Shown here in pieces: positions 1-5,756 of a DNA stretch of 5,756 bases. Origin of the DNA: a virus; IMG/VR virus record IMGVR_UViG_3300045988_017492, one strand, 5' to 3'. Below the pieces are notes generated by a model that was given only the letters and a program-made list of their open reading frames with translations, ran no database searches and was not told the origin of the DNA. A program made the translations under genes and the position numbers. Each line of letters starts with the position of its first letter. Position 1 is the first letter of the stretch.

Positions 1-99
1 ATTTTTTTTGTGACGTATCCTGCAACATATCTGTAAGTTTCCGGTACTGCTTGTGCTATTTGTATTTGACCCATGCCCCATAGGTCTTCTAGCCATTTA
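1..99. repeat. Terminal redundancy, copy 1 (identical to 5658..5756); signature of a circular assembly, not a biological repeat
   Basis: The string attttttttgtgacgtatcctgcaacatatctgtaagtttccggtactgcttgtgctatttgtatttgacccatgccccataggtcttctagccattta was read at both ends with 99/99 identity. Confidence 0.95.
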
Positions 100-662
100 C
101 TTGTGAAGTATCCGTTGTGTTTTACCTTGTATAGGTGTTCTAGGTCTGTTGGTCTCCATCCATATAGAATCATATGGTAATGCGGTCTTGCTGTCTGTTC
201 TCCATACTCTCCTGCCACAAAATAGCGTAATTTGCCCCTGTAAGCCTTTCTGAGGCGTTTTAAGAATTTTTGAATGTCAGTATACAGTAACGTTTGTACG
301 CTCTCTGGCCGCTTCTCTCCCGGTTTCCAGACGTATTGTACTTTTCGCATGATTTCGCCTGTATTTACAATCATTCCTGGTACATGGTCATCGTCATATG
401 TTAGTGTGATGAACCACACTTCTTCTTTCGGATAGTCTCGTGCTTCTAATTCTATTCGTGTTGTCCAGTCCTCTCTTTGTCTTATTCTGCATCCGATGCA
501 CTGTCCGCATGGTATTAACATGACATCTTTTCTGTACATCAAATCTTCATATTTGAGCTGTTTTCCCGATATTTCAGAAAAGCGGGCAAGTGAATACACC
601 CGCCCGCTTATGTCTTTGTTTTCCGGGTTGTACAGCCGTATTAACGGTTTGTAACAACTCAT
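1..662 (-). CDS. VP4: Replication initiation protein VP4 (HUH rolling-circle endonuclease), N-terminal 220 codons; the gene continues across the circular junction into 5756..5300
   Basis: The ORF is absent from the track because it runs off the window edge. Hand translation from ATG 662..660 gives MSCYKPLIRLYNPENKDISGRVYSLARFSEISGKQLKYEDLMYRKDVMLIPCGQCIGCRIRQREDWTTRIELEARDYPKEEVWFITLTYDDDHVPG...LRYFVAGEYGEQTARPHYHMILYGWRPTDLEHLYKVKHNGYFTSKWLEDLWGMGQIQIAQAVPETYRYVAGYVTKK. An in-frame TAA lies at 668..666. Visible motifs are CGQCIGCR, RCR motif I FITLTY (413..396), HUH motif HYH (182..174), and the two-tyrosine motif YVAGYVTK (29..6), which parallels YVAKYVNK of phiX174 protein A. The start overlaps the VP2 stop as ATGA (662..659). 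A GGTGA SD-like element sits 8 nt upstream. Confidence 0.9.
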   Translation of the reverse strand, partial: MSCYKPLIRLYNPENKDISGRVYSLARFSEISGKQLKYEDLMYRKDVMLIPCGQCIGCRIRQREDWTTRIELEARDYPKEEVWFITLTYDDDHVPGMIVNTGEIMRKVQYVWKPGEKRPESVQTLLYTDIQKFLKRLRKAYRGKLRYFVAGEYGEQTARPHYHMILYGWRPTDLEHLYKVKHNGYFTSKWLEDLWGMGQIQIAQAVPETYRYVAGYVTKK

Positions 663-1542: not shown

Positions 1543-3219
1543 TTACAGTTTGTACAATCCCGGTACACTGTACAAGGGCATTCTTCTTACGGTCTTGTTT
1601 GCTACTCGGATTGCGCCAAAGAACTGGTCTTCTTCCTGTTCAATGAGTGTTCTTGCAATTTCGTTTTTTCCTTCTGCCATCCACTCCTGCGACAGTGTTG
1701 GCACTTTATCGTAGTTGTCTGCGTAGTGCCAGAAATCCAATGTGCCTGTTGCGTTGCTTCTCATGAGGCCGCTTACGCGGTTTGGCTTCATTCTGTAGTC
1801 CGCCCATGCCTCTTGGTAGCCGAACGTCTCTTCATCTCTTGGTGTGCCGGTCAGCATGATTTCCTTTTTCTTTACGGGCTGTTCGCCTAGATTTGCAAAC
1901 TGCGGTACATAGTAGTCCAAGCGGTCCCTTCTGCCCCAGAATCGCTCAAGTCCCTGTTGGTACGTTCTGTTGTGACGTACGCACATTACACCGATTACAA
2001 ATCCGTGCTCCTCAAAGCTCTTTGTAAAGGAACTTTCATTGATAGGCGTTACCGACATTGCACCAGTTTCGCCAATAGGTGTATCGTTTGCGCCTTGCTG
2101 TCCGCTTGTCTGCACGATTTGGTTCATGTTGACGTGATAGCGTCCACCGCCGAGATATTCCGGAATCTGCACCGTTTTGTCGCTGATGGTTACATCCCAC
2201 AGTGCCTGTACCTGTTCACGGTATCTGCTACCACCTCGTGCCATCGCTTCATAGTACTGCTGCACTGCAACTGCGTTTCGCAGTTCGTTGATTGTTGTTG
2301 CGGTTACGCTGCTAAGGTCTGCTTTAAGGTATGCATCTGCAACGTAGTTATTTCCATCCAGTGTGCCTTTTCCTGTCAGTTTTCCTCCTTTTTCCGTGTT
2401 TTCAAAATTCGTTGTGCCGTTTGCTGGCCACGGCTGGTTTAAGATTATTTTATCTGTTACTTTGGCGCTTTCTTGGATGGTGTTATATCCAAATACCGGT
2501 GCGTTTCCAGCCATTGGTACGGTCACTTCCGGCCCACGCTGCGGATAAGGCAAGCAGCTTGAAAAGTAGTCGTGAAAACGGTTGACCGGAAGACATCTTC
2601 CGCCCCTGTATGCTTCTTTTAGTGTCGTTTCTGCATTTTCTTTTGTAGTTGGTGCTTGGTCTGAGTATATTACACTTTCATCGTCATCTGCTTCTACAGC
2701 TGCATTTCCTACGTTTTGGTCTCTGAAAAACTCGTTCCAGATTTTTACGTAAGCTCTTATGGGCAGTGCATTGATTTCGAATTTTTCATTTTTGGATTTT
2801 ACTACTTTTGTCGGTACGCCCATGTAGTCTAGGATGCTTTTTTCATATGGCATTGCGTCCGGGTTTGGTGTTTCGATTTTGATAGTCGGAATCCTGTACT
2901 CTTTTGTCGGCATCCATGGTGTACTTTCCACTTCTCCCATGAACCTTTTGAAGTTTTTCCACAGGATTCGGTTTGGACAATAGAAGTAATAAAAATCAAT
3001 AAACGCATCATCCATGACCGGGAATTTCGGTGTGGTCATTCGGATAATTGCGCTTGTATCCACCTCGAAAGTGTCTCCCGGCAGCACCTCGTCTACAAAG
3101 AATGGAATGAGTTTGCCACTGTCGAACGTGGTCAGGATTGTCTGGTCACGGTTAAACTTTGTTCGGCTTGTGTGCACCTGTGGTACTTGTAAGAAGTGGT
3201 TTTCATTGTTTCTGTTCAT
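1543..3219 (-). CDS. VP1: VP1 major capsid protein (F-like jelly-roll), 558 aa
   Basis: ORF-track entry. The N-terminus FLQVPQVHTSRTKFNRDQTILTTFDSGKLIPFFVDEVLPGDTF, plus FYCPNRILWKNFKRFMGE and TINELRNAVAVQQYYEAMARGGSRYREQVQALWDV, are hallmark gokushovirus VP1 blocks. The ATG at 3219..3217 overlaps the VP3 stop (ATGA). A GGGAG lies upstream. Confidence 0.95.
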   Translation of the reverse strand: MNRNNENHFLQVPQVHTSRTKFNRDQTILTTFDSGKLIPFFVDEVLPGDTFEVDTSAIIRMTTPKFPVMDDAFIDFYYFYCPNRILWKNFKRFMGEVESTPWMPTKEYRIPTIKIETPNPDAMPYEKSILDYMGVPTKVVKSKNEKFEINALPIRAYVKIWNEFFRDQNVGNAAVEADDDESVIYSDQAPTTKENAETTLKEAYRGGRCLPVNRFHDYFSSCLPYPQRGPEVTVPMAGNAPVFGYNTIQESAKVTDKIILNQPWPANGTTNFENTEKGGKLTGKGTLDGNNYVADAYLKADLSSVTATTINELRNAVAVQQYYEAMARGGSRYREQVQALWDVTISDKTVQIPEYLGGGRYHVNMNQIVQTSGQQGANDTPIGETGAMSVTPINESSFTKSFEEHGFVIGVMCVRHNRTYQQGLERFWGRRDRLDYYVPQFANLGEQPVKKKEIMLTGTPRDEETFGYQEAWADYRMKPNRVSGLMRSNATGTLDFWHYADNYDKVPTLSQEWMAEGKNEIARTLIEQEEDQFFGAIRVANKTVRRMPLYSVPGLYKL

Positions 3220-3614
3220 TCTGCCGTTTTACTCCCTTCTTCTGGTTCTTTTTTCTGTGCTTTGCTCTGCTCTTCCAGCTCTCTGAGCTTCATTGCGTTT
3301 ACTTGCGCAGTTGCAAGCAGCTGGTGATACTCGTGGATGTTTCGTGGCCATTCTGTTATGTCCATTTCTATGCCATCCATAACGCCTTTTTGAAGGCTTT
3401 CCAGAAACTCCGGGTCAAAGCTTGCCTTTCTGACGATGTTTTTAATATTGCATTCGTCTGAATAGCTTTCGATCTCCTGCTGGATGTCGATTGGTTCGGT
3501 TTCCTTCAGCTCTTTTTGGTTTTCTTCGTTCTTTGTCCAGACGTATTGTCTCCGCAGTTTTTCGCCCGGATTCGAAAAGAAGGGCTTTCGCCCTTCCTCG
3601 TATCGTTTATTCAT
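3216..3614 (-). CDS. VP3: VP3 internal scaffolding protein, 132 aa from ATG 3614 (the ORF track extends it to ATG 3677, 153 aa)
   Basis: The size, acidic composition and position immediately upstream of VP1 fit gokushovirus VP3, as does the block DECNIKNIVRKA. ATG 3614..3612 is preceded by GGGAGGG (3628..3622) with a 7-nt spacer and overlaps the stop of the upstream ORF (aaATGAATAA). ATG 3677 has no SD and would overlap that ORF by 71 nt. Confidence 0.8.
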   Translation of the reverse strand: MNKRYEEGRKPFFSNPGEKLRRQYVWTKNEENQKELKETEPIDIQQEIESYSDECNIKNIVRKASFDPEFLESLQKGVMDGIEMDITEWPRNIHEYHQLLATAQVNAMKLRELEEQSKAQKKEPEEGSKTAE

Positions 3615-3852
3615 TTGGTTTACCCTCCCATACTTTGTACTGTCCTTCACCCATGACAAAACATCCGTCTTCGTCATTGAAGTCTGCCAGTTTGTGCCCT
3701 GTGTAGTCCTCCGGACTCTGTCCGATAAAGGTTTTTTCGTCCTTTGCCATTACATTGCACATTCTTGCAAAAGTTGCGTCGTTCTTACTTTCTCCTACCC
3801 ATGCGTAGCACTTTGCCACTTTGTCCCAGATGCCATAATATTTGTGTTCCAT
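3607..3852 (-). CDS. Small conserved-looking Microviridae accessory ('nonstructural') protein, 81 aa; function unknown
   Basis: ATG 3852..3850 is preceded by AAGGAG with an 8-nt spacer. The pattern YYGIWDKV...NDATFARMC...SPEDYTGHKLADFNDEDG matches my memory of an ~80-aa family annotated as nonstructural/hypothetical in metagenomic gokushoviruses (Y-x-I-x-D ... ND-x-x-A-x-R ... PEDY ... FD-x-x-G). This is unverified. Confidence 0.7.
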   Translation of the reverse strand: MEHKYYGIWDKVAKCYAWVGESKNDATFARMCNVMAKDEKTFIGQSPEDYTGHKLADFNDEDGCFVMGEGQYKVWEGKPNE

Positions 3853-3971: not shown

Positions 3972-4196
3972 TTACGATGCTGTGCCATTGCTGTACTCCC
4001 TTCTGATTAGTTCCATTTCGATTGCGTTTGCAAAACTTTTCATCCGCCATATTTCGTCAAGCATTTTTTTTGCGTCTTCGACGTTGGATATTTTGCGAAG
4101 CATTTTGTATTCGCCATCGATTTCTTTGTATTTTCGAGTTAGCAGCTTCTCAAGCACTTCTTTGGTCTGGTCTCTTACGTTCCATGTTTTGTGCAT
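3972..4196 (-). CDS. Hypothetical protein, 74 aa, predicted all-helical and charged; no family recognised
   Basis: ATG 4196..4194 is preceded by AAGGAG with a 9-nt spacer. That SD is embedded in the last codons of the upstream 40-aa ORF. The ORF fills the gap in the same-strand array exactly. Confidence 0.6.
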   Translation of the reverse strand: MHKTWNVRDQTKEVLEKLLTRKYKEIDGEYKMLRKISNVEDAKKMLDEIWRMKSFANAIEMELIRREYSNGTAS

Positions 4197-4326: not shown

Positions 4327-4719
4327 TTACACCCCCTTTCTGTATTTGTTGGGTCGTGTATCAACGTGCACCCAACTTGCGTAGACGATGATGCCGCAGC
4401 CAAATGGAATGATTTTGTTTAGTTTGTTGGCGATTTCCTTTGCGGTCATGCCTTCAATCCGGATGTCTGCTGCCATTCCTCGCATGTGATATGAGTACTT
4501 AGCACCGCCTACTTTTTTATTCCTTGCCGGTGTTCTGTATCCGCTGGTTATGTATACCGGCTTTCCGACTTGGTTTCTGAGAATATCCAAAATAGATACC
4601 AGATAGTCATCCACAAAAACTACCTGTGAACCATCCTGGCACGCAAATTCCCGCACTTTGAAGTGCTGCCCTATTTTTTCGTTTGCGTCTGTGTCCATGA
4701 TATAGCATTTGATTGCCAT
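4327..4719 (-). CDS. Zinc D,D-/L,D-peptidase of the M15 (LAS) superfamily, Peptidase_M15_3/YcbK-like; putative peptidoglycan hydrolase (endolysin), 130 aa
   Basis: The sequence contains ...FKVREFACQDGS...ITSGYRTPARNKKVGGAKYSYHMRGMAADI...WVHVD. It shows the SGYR-x-x-x-x-N-x-x-VGG block, an H-x6-D zinc-ligand pair (SYHMRGMAAD) and the distal VHVD histidine typical of M15A-type peptidases. The track start at 4728 is a GTG inside the SD. ATG 4719..4717 is preceded by GAGAGGTGA with a 5-nt spacer. No N-terminal signal peptide or TM segment is visible. Confidence 0.8.
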   Translation of the reverse strand: MAIKCYIMDTDANEKIGQHFKVREFACQDGSQVVFVDDYLVSILDILRNQVGKPVYITSGYRTPARNKKVGGAKYSYHMRGMAADIRIEGMTAKEIANKLNKIIPFGCGIIVYASWVHVDTRPNKYRKGV

Positions 4720-4743: not shown

Positions 4744-4772
4744 ATTTTACCATTTTTCTTGTCGCTTGTCAA
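4744..4772 (-). promoter_or_regulatory. Strong sigma-70/sigma-A-type promoter driving the whole gene array
   Basis: The minus strand reads ccaaaaaacaa-TTGACA-agcgacaagaaaaatgg-TAAAAT. The -35 element is a perfect TTGACA (4772..4767) and the spacer is exactly 17 nt. The -10 is TAAAAT (4749..4744) with an extended -10 TG (TGgTAAAAT). An A-rich UP-like tract lies upstream. The predicted TSS is near 4737, about 18 nt before the peptidase ATG. Confidence 0.7.
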
Positions 4773-4863
4773 TTGTTTTTTGGTTTGAATGGCGCTTTAG
4801 CGCCTTGCCGTGTGGAGCGCAGCGGAACTCGGCTTAATCCATTCATTTTTAGCGCTGTGCGCG

Positions 4864-5038
4864 TTTTCAACACTTTCAACATTTTCAACAGGTTTTCAAC
4901 ATAAAGTTGCACAATGATTTTCGTCATTTTGACGGACTTTCAACAATTCAACATTTTTTCCACAATTCTTTCAACAGTGTTTTTCGCTTGTTTTTAACGT
5001 TTTATCGTTATAAATTTATACTTTTCAACTTTTCCACA
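4864..5038. repeat. Array of ten same-orientation 9-mers, consensus yTTTCAACA (plus strand) = TGTTGAAAr (minus strand); iteron-like / DnaA-box-like
   Basis: Plus-strand copies are: 4864 TTTTCAACA, 4873 CTTTCAACA, 4882 TTTTCAACA, 4893 TTTTCAACA, 4937 CTTTCAACA, 4945 AATTCAACA, 4956 TTTTCCACA, 4968 CTTTCAACA, 5022 TTTTCAACT, 5030 TTTTCCACA. The first four are contiguous at 9/9/11-nt phasing. The two TTTTCCACA copies satisfy the relaxed DnaA-box consensus TTWTNCACA. Confidence 0.85.
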
Positions 5039-5072
5039 TACTCTACTACTACGTCTACAACAAGTTAATATA

Positions 5073-5119
5073 ATATACGCGCGCATGCGTGCGCGCTACG
5101 CGCGCGCGTGCGTGCGTAC
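5073..5119. repeat. 47-nt alternating purine-pyrimidine tract (CG/TG/CA-rich), Z-DNA-prone and hairpin-prone
   Basis: The tract atatacgcgcgcatgcgtgcgcgc|tacgcgcgcgcgtgcgtgcgtac alternates perfectly over 5073..5096 and 5097..5119, with one phase slip at 5096/5097. It contains a 7-bp hairpin (gcgcgca 5079..5085 with tgcgcgc 5090..5096), the 12-nt palindrome acgcgcgcgcgt (5098..5109), and an alternative 9-bp stem 5097..5105 with 5110..5118. Confidence 0.85.
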
Positions 5120-5124
5120 CGGCA

Positions 5125-5142
5125 GCCCCCTTGCTAGGGGGC
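5125..5142. other. Hairpin A1: GCCCCC-ttgcta-GGGGGC
   Basis: A 6-bp all-G:C stem (5125..5130 with 5137..5142) and a 6-nt loop. Confidence 0.75.
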
Positions 5143-5150
5143 GCTGACGG

Positions 5151-5183
5151 AAGGGGGTAGGCCGATAGGCCTACCCCCTTTTT
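5151..5183. other. Hairpin A2: 13-bp perfect stem AAGGGGGTAGGCC-gata-GGCCTACCCCCTT followed by T-run on the plus strand
   Basis: 5151..5163 pairs perfectly with 5168..5180 around the tetraloop gata. TTTTT at 5179..5183 follows on the plus strand only. Confidence 0.8.
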
Positions 5184-5226
5184 CGCTGATAACTGATTTA
5201 CATGGAGCTTTGAAGTCTATTTTCAT

Positions 5227-5243
5227 CCCCCCTTCTAGGGGGG
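5227..5243. other. Hairpin B1: CCCCCC-ttcta-GGGGGG (paralogue of A1)
   Basis: A 6-bp all-G:C stem (5227..5232 with 5238..5243). The loop ttcta compares with ttgcta in A1. Confidence 0.75.
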
Positions 5244-5256
5244 ATAATAGAGGGGT

Positions 5257-5289
5257 TAGCCCAGTGCTTACTTGATAGGTACTGGGCTA
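5257..5289. other. Hairpin B2: TAGCCCAGT ... ACTGGGCTA, 9-bp perfect stem extendable inward; starts 11 nt downstream of the Rep stop codon on the minus strand
   Basis: 5257..5265 pairs with 5281..5289. An inner extension (5267:5279, 5269:5277, 5270:5276) adds pairs, with two G:T pairs on the plus strand that become C:A mismatches on the minus strand. The lead-in GGGGTTAGCCC parallels GGGGGTAGGCC of A2. Confidence 0.75.
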
Positions 5290-5299
5290 GGTGACACCG

Positions 5300-5756
5300 T
5301 TAGAGCGTCCCCTTCTTCTTCGTTTGCTTTTTGATGACTCTTTCTTTTGTTTCGCATTGCTCTGCAAAGTCTGTGTTTTCATACTTTAGCCGGTTTTCTG
5401 CTATGGCTGCTGCCTGTCTGTTTTGTTTAATTCTCCACAATCTTTGTGGGTTTTCGGCTTCCATCATTTTTTCATAATAACGTGGAATTTGTGCGTGTTT
5501 TCCGTTTGTGCATTGGATGTATCCTTGTCTCCAGATTTCTGCTTTGTGTTCTTGATAATAGTTGTCTCCTAGTCCCGGTTTTAGGCTCATGCATGCGAAT
5601 GGTTTTTGTTGACCTAACTCGTAGTATTGGTTTGCTTTCTTTCCGTCTATTTCGTACATTTTTTTTGTGACGTATCCTGCAACATATCTGTAAGTTTCCG
5701 GTACTGCTTGTGCTATTTGTATTTGACCCATGCCCCATAGGTCTTCTAGCCATTTA
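5300..5756 (-). CDS. VP4: Replication initiation protein VP4, C-terminal part (stop TAA-equivalent codon at 5302..5300); same gene as 1..662 joined across the circle, 339 aa total
   Basis: The track ORF 5300..5731 begins at an internal Met (residue 197 of the full protein). The frame stays open to the window end and is in phase with 662..1 (5300-5657 = -357, divisible by 3). It contains YRYVAGYVTKK (5686..5661). Confidence 0.9.
   Translation of the reverse strand, partial: KWLEDLWGMGQIQIAQAVPETYRYVAGYVTKKMYEIDGKKANQYYELGQQKPFACMSLKPGLGDNYYQEHKAEIWRQGYIQCTNGKHAQIPRYYEKMMEAENPQRLWRIKQNRQAAAIAENRLKYENTDFAEQCETKERVIKKQTKKKGTL
5658..5756. repeat. Terminal redundancy, copy 2 (identical to 1..99)
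   Basis: See copy 1. Confidence 0.95.

Follow-up and report, generated by a model that had tools for sequence, protein, structure and literature searches.

The stretch analysed here (the window: 5756 nt of IMG/VR record IMGVR_UViG_3300045988_017492) comprises a circular gokushovirus genome of 5657 nt plus a 99-nt terminal overlap, and all of its genes lie on the − strand. A 571-nt intergenic region, extending from the stop codon of VP4, the replication protein (Rep), to a peptidase gene, contains an array of ten short direct repeats resembling boxes for DnaA, the initiator of bacterial chromosome replication. The repeats, of the form TTTTCMACA, begin at positions 4864, 4873, 4882, 4893, 4937, 4945, 4956, 4968, 5022 and 5030, and all are on the + strand within 4864–5038. 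A first-pass annotation of this DNA had reported ten same-orientation copies in 175 nt, the first four spaced 9, 9 and 11 nt start to start, and had noted that both TTTTCCACA copies fit TTWTNCACA exactly, with seven of the other eight one or two positions away; a recount agrees on each point. Copy by copy, the mismatches to TTWTNCACA are 1, 2, 1, 1, 2, 3, 0, 2, 2 and 0, the copy with three being AATTCAACA at 4945. The genome-wide count against shuffled sequence that had been proposed as a check gave six occurrences of the exact 8-mer TTTCAACA in the window, all inside 4865–4976, against 0.28 expected, and none of 200 shuffles reached six copies. The looser motif TTTCMACW has 11 matches in the window against 1.19 expected, nine of them in the array.

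Anatomy of the cassette

The array forms the upstream part of a 212-nt cassette (4864–5075). At the far end of the cassette two boxes abut, TTTTCAAC-TTTTCCACA, and are followed by a 4-nt spacer, by CTACTACTAC... and by an AT-rich tract; read on the other strand, CTACTACTAC consists of 3′-GAT-5′ triplets, which are DnaA-trios. The tandem boxes (5022..5038, + strand, 8 nt start to start) are the counterpart of DnaA-box 6/7 of Bacillus subtilis (TTATCCAC|AAATCCACA). The spacer (5039..5042, + strand) is TACT here and GTCC or GGCC in the consensus and in other clades, while its counterpart in bacteria is a GC cluster, GGCC in B. subtilis and CACA or GCCC in the bacterial oriCs found in this work. 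The trio tract (5043..5064, trios on the − strand) reads CTA CTA CTA CGT CTA CAA CAA G on the + strand and GAT GAT GAT GCA GAT GTT GTT on the − strand in the 3′ to 5′ direction. It is contained in the most conserved block of the element, CTACTACTACnnCTACAACAAGTTA, in which identity is at least 90% per column across 145 elements; on the − strand this block is AACTTGTTGTAG, containing ACTTGTTGTA. The 13-nt AT-rich tract, TTAATATAATATA (5065..5077), is the presumed unwinding element beside the trios, and GC-rich DNA lies beyond it.

Upstream of the proximal pair the boxes fall into two clusters. Box cluster 1 (4864..4901, + strand) comprises TTTTCAACA, CTTTCAACA, TTTTCAACA and TTTTCAACA at 9/9/11-nt spacing; its TTTTCAACAGGTTTTCAACA is similar to TTTTCAACAGGTTTTTCAACA of the Ruminococcus albus-type oriC. 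Box cluster 2 (4937..4976, + strand) comprises CTTTCAACA, AATTCAACA, TTTTCCACA and CTTTCAACA at 8/11/12-nt spacing, and in 23 of the 145 elements the third of these boxes matches TTATCCACA perfectly. Throughout these elements position 6 of the box is the only one that varies freely, being A or C only, and box copies on the opposite strand are nearly absent (a mean of 0.04 per element).

Several further features are woven between the boxes. A conserved AGTTGCACAA (4905..4914, + strand; 70–99% per column) is followed, still between the clusters, by a small palindrome or hairpin, TCGTCA-TTT-TGACGG (4921..4935), which shows compensatory CG to TA exchanges at 4922/4934 and 4925/4931. Beyond cluster 2 an AT-rich spacer (4994..5011) holds a second palindrome, of consensus TTAACGT-TTTA-ACGTTAA, with compensatory changes at 4997/5008 and 5000/5005. 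Counts of G:T against A:C pairs, which would tell which strand folds, were balanced in both palindromes. The origin model set out below leaves AGTTGCACAA and the palindromes CGTCA-N3-TGACG and AACGT-N4-ACGTT without explanation; they may bind some other protein or fold into small hairpins. A short inverted repeat bounds the cassette at its inversion breakpoints, the left arm being TGTGCGCG (4856..4863) and the right arm CGCGCGCA (5078..5085), the latter at the start of a 41-nt alternating CG/CA tract.

Single-base indels between genomes, together with the lack of any conserved open frame, indicate that the element is non-coding. A hidden small gene was considered and rejected: one frame is open in about half of the elements, through the T-rich repeats, yet its minimum open stretch is 14 codons. 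An Rfam scan of the element returned no family and only two sub-threshold chance matches.

Conservation, inversion and genomic setting

A sensitive blastn search with the intergenic region recovered 50 GenBank gokushovirus records sharing ∼4863–5113 at 70–90% identity, many of them from genomes too divergent to align elsewhere. The first-pass annotation had suggested looking for the same array in related genomes, and a profile of the element detects it in 75 of 80 IMG/VR genomes picked solely by VP1 similarity. In 145 distinct copies the box offsets from the conserved block are fixed at −190, −181, −172, −161, −117, −109, −98, −86, −32 and −24. About 150 related gut gokushovirus genomes carry the cassette in total, the relatives of the window phage coming from humans, pigs, monkeys and mink, and across carriers whose VP4 proteins are from 37% to 99.7% identical the motif and its phasing are unchanged. 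Two apparent element-free relatives were discarded as uninformative, being truncated or chimeric assemblies. In one (L090), microvirus sequence is joined to portal, terminase and bacterial genes in a chimera; in the other (L076), VP4 is truncated and the 2.7 kb after it are nearly free of open reading frames (ORFs), with one 118-aa ORF on the opposite strand.

The cassette is found in either the VP4–M15 or the VP2–VP4 intergenic region; boxes and genes are on opposite strands in 115 genomes and share a strand in 39. A clade with VP4 ∼37–40% identical carries it between VP2 and VP4 in the other orientation, and four IMG/VR genomes with VP4 84–96% identical to that of the window carry an inverted element in the same intergenic region. 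By blastn this inversion is exact, from window positions 4863/4866 to 5071/5075. The flanks of these inverted relatives are collinear at 83–93% identity and the inverted segment is only 77–79% identical, which suggests an old variant rather than a fresh flip. Orientation independence fits an origin-type or double-stranded DNA function and does not suit a role that needs one packaged strand. The idea that the cassette sets the packaged strand was rejected on base composition: four-fold degenerate sites are A 0.49/T 0.12 in the 115 genomes and A 0.48/T 0.12 in the 39, with no flip.

A scan of 185,579 species-representative genomes with the conserved block found no integrated copy. A prophage or attP role was set aside, the matches being only a phage contig in a Bacteroides metagenome-assembled genome (MAG) and a chance coding match on a large contig. 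The phage contig (L197, CAVKUS010000079.1) is a complete 5739-nt gokushovirus with the cassette, binned in the MAG Bacteroides sp. CAG:545, probably by co-abundance. Strong Shine–Dalgarno sites, a TTGACA/TAAAAT promoter and DnaA boxes of Clostridia type together point to a Gram-positive host.

Outside the invertible cassette, just after the VP4 stop, lies a GC-rich hairpin, TAGCCCAGTgcTTACTTGATAGGTACTGGGCTA (5257..5289, + strand, non-coding), with ACTTGAT in its loop and CTTGATA at 5271; it is a candidate VP4 nick site. The loop carries TTACTTGATAGG, like the loops of Chp2, SpV4 and phiMH2K, each of which has a single GC-rich hairpin whose loop reads TACTTG(A/T)T on the coding strand (L199 ∼2899–2945, L200 ∼3295–3345 and L201 ∼505–545). 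The gpA nick site of phiX174 is CAACTTG/ATA; the phiX174 origin 18-mer, allowing up to three mismatches, gave no match. The nick-type hairpin is present in all 149 cassette-carrying genomes examined, with stems that vary by clade and a conserved loop, at 30–370 nt beyond the AT-rich end of the cassette (the median distance is 156 nt for the main clade, 31 nt for the other one). In every case the non-coding strand carries the loop motif, whichever way the cassette points. From these sequences the hairpin, and not the array, would be the likelier place for Rep to nick.

At four-fold sites of the large genes (window and L012–L197) the coding strand has ∼48–55% A and 10–12% T. The non-coding strand of the window and its relatives is thus very T-rich, and the skew is unchanged by cassette orientation. 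The corresponding values for the coding strand are 50% T in Chp2, 65% T in SpV4 and 47% A in phiMH2K. With both the nick motif and the T-rich composition on the strand opposite all genes, the DNA of the gut gokushoviruses may be packaged antisense to the genes, if the loop does mark the nicked and packaged strand; in this they may differ from all Microviridae characterised so far.

Between the cassette and the VP4 stop are the alternating CG/CA tract (5076–5116), prone to form a hairpin or Z-DNA, and three further GC-rich hairpins (5126–5141, 5151–5180 and 5225–5245). As single-stranded DNA (ssDNA) the whole of this region folds far better than shuffled versions (z = −7.8). The hairpin at 5151–5180 is followed by a T-run on the + strand, antisense to the genes.

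The 99-nt terminal direct repeat (1–99 and 5658–5756) shows the window to be a circular contig cut within the VP4 gene, which consequently appears split in ORF lists; VP4 runs on the − strand from 662..1 and continues at 5756..5300, has a true length of 339 aa, carries HUH and YxxxY motifs and matches PF23343. Also on the − strand are VP2 (659–1504), VP1 (1543–3219), the VP3 scaffold (3216–3677), ORF5 (3607–3852), a 74-aa ORF (3972–4196) and the M15 peptidase (4327–4719). Low-complexity SQSQSQ stretches of VP2 derive from hexamer tandem repeats (TTGGCT on the + strand) at 1334–1378 and 854–868. The promoter with a −35 element at 4772 described in the first-pass annotation is present on the − strand as a sigma-70-type promoter-like site for the peptidase gene (4744..4772): TTGACA at 4772..4767, a 17-nt spacer and TG-TAAAAT ending at 4744, with 11 of 12 matches, are followed by GAGAGGTGA and an ATG at 4719. 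The site lies outside the cassette and is unlinked to it in other genomes.

Correspondence with bacterial origins

The basal unwinding system (BUS) of bacterial origins consists of a DnaA box, usually with a weaker second box upstream, a short GC-rich spacer, at least three DnaA-trios of consensus 3′-GAT-5′, the best match being closest to the box, and then AT-rich DNA (PMC6669920, PMC8287927, PMC7561715). A box is accepted near trios if it has at most two mismatches to TTATCCACA or to the species' own box (PMC8287927). When the genome was scanned by these published rules, the top candidate was TTTTCCACA at 5030 followed by 4 nt and CTACTACTA. A stricter Firmicutes pattern (a box, a second box at +8, a 4-nt spacer and three CTA triplets) occurs once in the window and in none of 300 random genomes, and in a random-genome control none of 60 best candidates had three CTA trios.

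The box at 5030 has one mismatch to TTATCCACA and none to TTWTNCACA, and the second box, TTTTCAACT at 5022, has three where four are allowed, at the 8-nt offset of B. subtilis box 6/7. The trios, for which the rules ask at least three triplets of the form NAN and preferably 3′-GAT-5′, downstream of the box and on the strand complementary to 5′-TTATCCACA, read GAT GAT GAT (GCA) GAT on the − strand. The spacer is 4 nt long in the window and throughout the main clade, and there is none in the clade with VP4 ∼37% identical. AT-rich DNA extends for 13 nt in the window, ∼20 nt in other clades and ∼35 nt in a siphovirus contig described below. Chromosomal origins of this kind lie beside dnaA/dnaN and the phage site lies between the VP4 and peptidase genes, so the phage sequence is a BUS-like module and not a chromosomal oriC.

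The orientation of the trios was checked against B. subtilis oligonucleotides. The experimental B. subtilis unwinding substrate is 5′-ACTTATCCACAAATCCACAGGCCC|TACTATTACTTCTACTA, and the window core, TTTTCAAC TTTTCCACA TACT CTACTACTACGTCTACAACAAG, has the same box orientation, 8-nt offset and 4-nt spacer. Published predictions place a B. subtilis-like arrangement in Clostridium acetobutylicum, C. botulinum, [C.] saccharolyticum and C. difficile as well, the boxes of the first two being of CAACA type; written as the top strand, the C. acetobutylicum prediction reads TTATCAACA AATCCACA CTCC CTACTACTA... and the C. botulinum prediction is TATCAACA. The equivalent cores of other gokushovirus clades are TTATCAACA-G-TTTAAACA-GGCC-CTACGACTACTACTA... 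and TTTTCAACA-G-TATCAACA-GGCC-CTACTACTACTC.... The layout is thus preserved among phage clades, and the variation between them stays within the DnaA-box family, much like that among bacterial origins. The window, two other gokushovirus clades, the siphovirus, two bacterial oriCs and B. subtilis can all be aligned in one register.

Boxes of the phage type also occur in bacterial origins themselves. The predicted origin of R. albus 7 contains TTTTCAACA-GGT-TTTTCAACA, and TTTTCAACA served as the species-specific box for a Chlamydophila origin (PMC8287927 supplement). A metagenome scan with the R. albus 21-mer gave 104 loci, in four of which (L247, L229, L279 and L255) the 21-mer comes directly behind a gene encoding DnaA motifs. 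The genes flanking it in L247 encode DnaA (TIGR00362, 406 bits, cut-off 344) and DnaN (TIGR00663, 269 bits, cut-off 138). These metagenomic dnaA–dnaN regions have about nine TTTTCAACA-type boxes, running in one direction in three of the four, with two reverse-orientation boxes in L229; one of their boxes is the AATTCAACA variant also seen in the phage. All four end in box, box and 4 nt, then CTA repeats in three and CTAATAATAATA in L229, and then AT-rich DNA. The end of L247 is TTTCCAACA TTTTCAACA CACA CTACTACTAATACTACAAATATAT, and that of L279 and L255 is ...AAATCAACA CACA CTACTACTACTACTACAAATATAT.

The same layout is found in one tailed phage. L131 (IMGVR_UViG_3300045988_134603) is a 39-kb siphovirus contig with tape-measure, Dit and minor-tail genes, the nearest relatives of which are phages of Butyrivibrio, Ruminococcus, Acutalibacter and Bifidobacterium. 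Its element (∼1780–1990, − strand) has about 14 TTTCAACA boxes, GCCC, CTACTACTA and an AT tract of ∼35 nt, with the tail genes on one side and a gene for a RelE-like toxin on the other. Such a pairing of an addiction gene with an origin-like module suggests that the phage is episomal, living as a phage–plasmid. Among phages its sole blastn match is a microvirus, at the box–trio core. Arrays of TTTCAACA or TTTTCAACAGGTTTTTCAACA were also seen on other large contigs from IMG/VR (L134, L137, L141, L147 and L112) and from metagenomes (L204, L213, L251, L253, L269 and L273), spaced by 11 or 24 nt and lacking any obvious trio block, in some cases just upstream of a gene; judging by sequence context, the TTTCAACA arrays of large viral contigs probably include some 9-nt repeats that belong to coding sequence. 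A search for plasmid relatives of the cassette gave only 39-nt chance matches in Acinetobacter plasmids, and Chp2, phiMH2K and SpV4 contain nothing comparable to the array or the BUS pattern.

An origin-like module in a small phage

These comparisons show how the cassette is laid out, that it is in register with an experimentally defined origin and with genuine bacterial ones, that it is conserved, and that it keeps its form whatever its orientation or position and whichever Rep lineage accompanies it. With some eight boxes in distal and two in proximal position, a spacer of 4 bp, trios and an AT-rich tract, the 212-bp cassette appears to reproduce a Firmicutes dnaA–dnaN origin, and its TTTTCAACA- and TTTTCCACA-type boxes look like those in origins of some gut Clostridia (Ruminococcus-like bacteria). 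The ten repeats are therefore read as probable DnaA boxes of an oriC-like cassette, at which host DnaA would bind and open the replicative form. The first-pass annotation had offered three functions for the array, namely Rep-binding sites, a DnaA-recruiting or DnaA-titrating array, and promoter operators, and had known of none of them in the Microviridae; a literature search likewise found nothing tying Microviridae or gokushoviruses to DnaA boxes, DnaA-trios or iterons, and a search with the 8-mer returned primer sequences only. The second function is favoured here in its recruiting form, given trios and an AT-rich tract at Firmicutes oriC spacing and the presence of TTTTCAACA in real origins. 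A DnaA-box cluster is expected to have three or more boxes, each within 100 bp of the next, that match the box of the host's own origin; the ten phage boxes in 175 nt would form one if the host uses the TTTTCAACA box. The further detail that DnaA-box hairpins might nucleate an ABC primosome on ssDNA did not survive. The 0.04 opposite-strand copies per element leave no inverted copy with which a double-stranded box could form in ssDNA, and the small palindromes are free of boxes.

From the sequence we infer DnaA binding, unwinding and a use for the opening as follows. DnaA-ATP of the host would fill the boxes on the double-stranded replicative form and would oligomerise, starting at the proximal pair and continuing along the − strand over its GAT trios, so as to melt the adjacent AT-rich DNA as at oriC. 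The most likely use would be to load the host's helicase and replisome onto the replicative form, or to aid VP4 at the hairpin, or both; titration of DnaA by the multicopy replicative form would be a by-product. It is possible, if doubtful, that two replication systems share the intergenic region, a DnaA-driven oriC-type module and the Rep nick hairpin, with the packaged DNA antisense. The first might allow the replicative form to be opened and perhaps copied or kept as a kind of minichromosome, in a plasmid-like carrier state coupled to the initiation potential of the host.

A number of observations weigh against an oriC-like function. Eight of the ten boxes have A rather than C at position 6 of the Escherichia coli consensus, and the status of such A-type boxes as DnaA boxes in Clostridia is suggested by origin predictions and by their place beside dnaA. 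The spacer of the window, TACT, is not GC-rich, the canonical trios number only three or four triplets, and the AT-rich tract gives way to GC-rich DNA after only 13 nt. The block CTACAACAAGTTA is under stronger conservation than the trios of bacteria, a fact that an origin model alone leaves unexplained, and ACTTGTTGTA in the block, on the − strand, equals the phiMH2K hairpin loop (10/10), so that a Rep-nicking role is possible. The phage profile gives only weak matches to bacterial origins, confined to the boxes and the box–trio core and without extended homology; the likeness is therefore one of layout and not of recent common descent, and a recent capture from the bacterial origins found here was considered and rejected. 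The sole match to the phage in the genome collection is the contig binned with a Bacteroides MAG. Finally, rolling-circle Microviridae, with phiX174 as the model, are not known to need DnaA.

It is unlikely that the cassette is instead a composite rolling-circle origin, in which the repeats would be iterons bound by VP4, the block would be the nick site (AACTTG/TTGTAG, − strand) and the likeness to oriC would be coincidental or secondary. Direct repeats beside a non-palindromic conserved block do recall pMV158 bind/nic and the iterons of CRESS viruses; ACTTGTTGTA, besides its identity with the phiMH2K loop, is close to that of SpV4; the block is conserved (at least 90% per column) above the need of trios alone; and cassette orientation is uniform in the clade with VP4 ∼37% identical. 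Iterons would, however, be expected to follow the Rep lineage and to be specific to a family, and this motif and its phasing stay constant over VP4 identities of 37–99.7% and recur in the siphovirus contig and in bacterial origins, whereas Chp2, SpV4 and phiMH2K have homologous Reps and no array. Moreover, the cassette inverts among close relatives without a change in strand composition, while every carrier examined has the separate ACTTG(A/T)-loop hairpin in fixed orientation as a better nick candidate. The Rep-site function offered in the first-pass annotation is disfavoured on these grounds.

Quite unlikely, too, is a DnaA sink, resembling datA or the B. subtilis clusters, that halts host initiation, or a DnaA-dependent sensor tuning phage transcription. 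Ten boxes on a multicopy replicative form would titrate DnaA, a sink would tolerate any orientation and position, and the boxes lie ∼90–270 nt upstream of the only strong promoter-like site of the region. A sink needs boxes only, however, and the trios, 4-nt spacer, 8-nt offset and AT-rich tract are the most conserved parts, which points to selection for unwinding; nor is the relation to the promoter conserved. That same relation, with the cassette inverted in 39 of 154 genomes and placed between VP2 and VP4 in one clade, argues against operators, for which a fixed position and orientation would be expected, and so disfavours the third function proposed earlier. An operator array for a phage or host transcription factor other than DnaA, acting at the peptidase and late-gene promoter at 4772, is accordingly very improbable: the strong promoter-like site is near, and the − strand repeats TGTTGAAA contain a −35-like TTGAAA and are one base from the Spo0A box (TGTCGAA), but the variable base, A or C at position 6, is never the one a Spo0A box needs, and the trio block would go unexplained. 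Hardly credible is a Xer/dif-like recombination site for multimer resolution or integration, with a core AGTTAATATAA-TATACG and ∼190 bp of cer/psi-like accessory sequence. AGTTAATATAA resembles the XerD arm of Firmicutes and E. coli dif, an inversion breakpoint falls at 5071–5075 and the accessory-like region is similar in size. Yet two inverted 11-bp arms around a 6-bp centre would be expected and no XerC arm is recognisable, the 185,579 species-representative genomes hold no integrated copy, and the origin model explains the full layout.

In the textbook account Microviridae replicate with the phage Rep and host primosome factors and not with DnaA. If the oriC-like interpretation is right, small ssDNA phages recruit the master initiator of their host, and phage replication or the persistence of the replicative form would be tied to the cell cycle. 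The box type would be a sequence clue to the hosts of abundant gut phages, pointing to Ruminococcus-like Clostridia. The phage core would provide a natural minimal 40-nt box–trio substrate, in many variants, for studies of origin unwinding, and viromes could be searched with origin-prediction tools for origin modules that viruses have hijacked. A conserved and portable origin-opening module would then be present in some 150 genomes of gut gokushoviruses and in one or more tailed phages.

Among known systems, the phiX174-type origin is matched by the neighbouring hairpin loop motif; the array has no counterpart in phiX174 or the classical gokushoviruses, the hairpin lies outside it, and the loop motif is antisense to the genes in this clade, unlike in the classical gokushoviruses. 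Like the iterons of rolling-circle replicating plasmids (pMV158 bind) and of CRESS viruses, the repeats are short, direct, in phase and near a presumed nick site, but they do not co-vary with Rep, they number ten in three groups over 175 nt rather than two to four by the nick hairpin, and they are also found in bacterial origins and a tailed phage. E. coli datA and the DnaA-box clusters of B. subtilis similarly have dense boxes away from the chromosomal origin, without an adjacent trio and unwinding module. At the theta origins of plasmids and phages (P1 oriR, F, pSC101 and RK2 oriV), clustered DnaA boxes beside an unwinding region recruit the host initiator, and the phage cassette is likewise a set of clustered boxes by a presumed unwinding region in an extrachromosomal replicon. 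Those replicons encode an iteron-binding initiator on which they depend and which DnaA assists, whereas the phage has no theta-type initiator gene, only an HUH Rep; among the papers searched, none reports a complete box–spacer–trio module for theta origins.

The closest likeness is to the BUS of B. subtilis and Clostridia oriC, with which the cassette shares box-to-trio orientation, abutting boxes offset by 8 nt, a spacer of 4 nt, three or more GAT trios closest to the box, then AT-rich DNA, more boxes upstream and a size of ∼200 bp. It differs in belonging to a 5.7-kb rolling-circle ssDNA phage, away from dnaA, in having all ten boxes in one direction within 175 nt, a short AT-rich tract and the invariant CTACAACAAGTTA block after the trios, and in being bounded by inverted repeats and found in either orientation. 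What is new here is the layout of a known bacterial origin module in an unexpected replicon, in the form of an invertible cassette.

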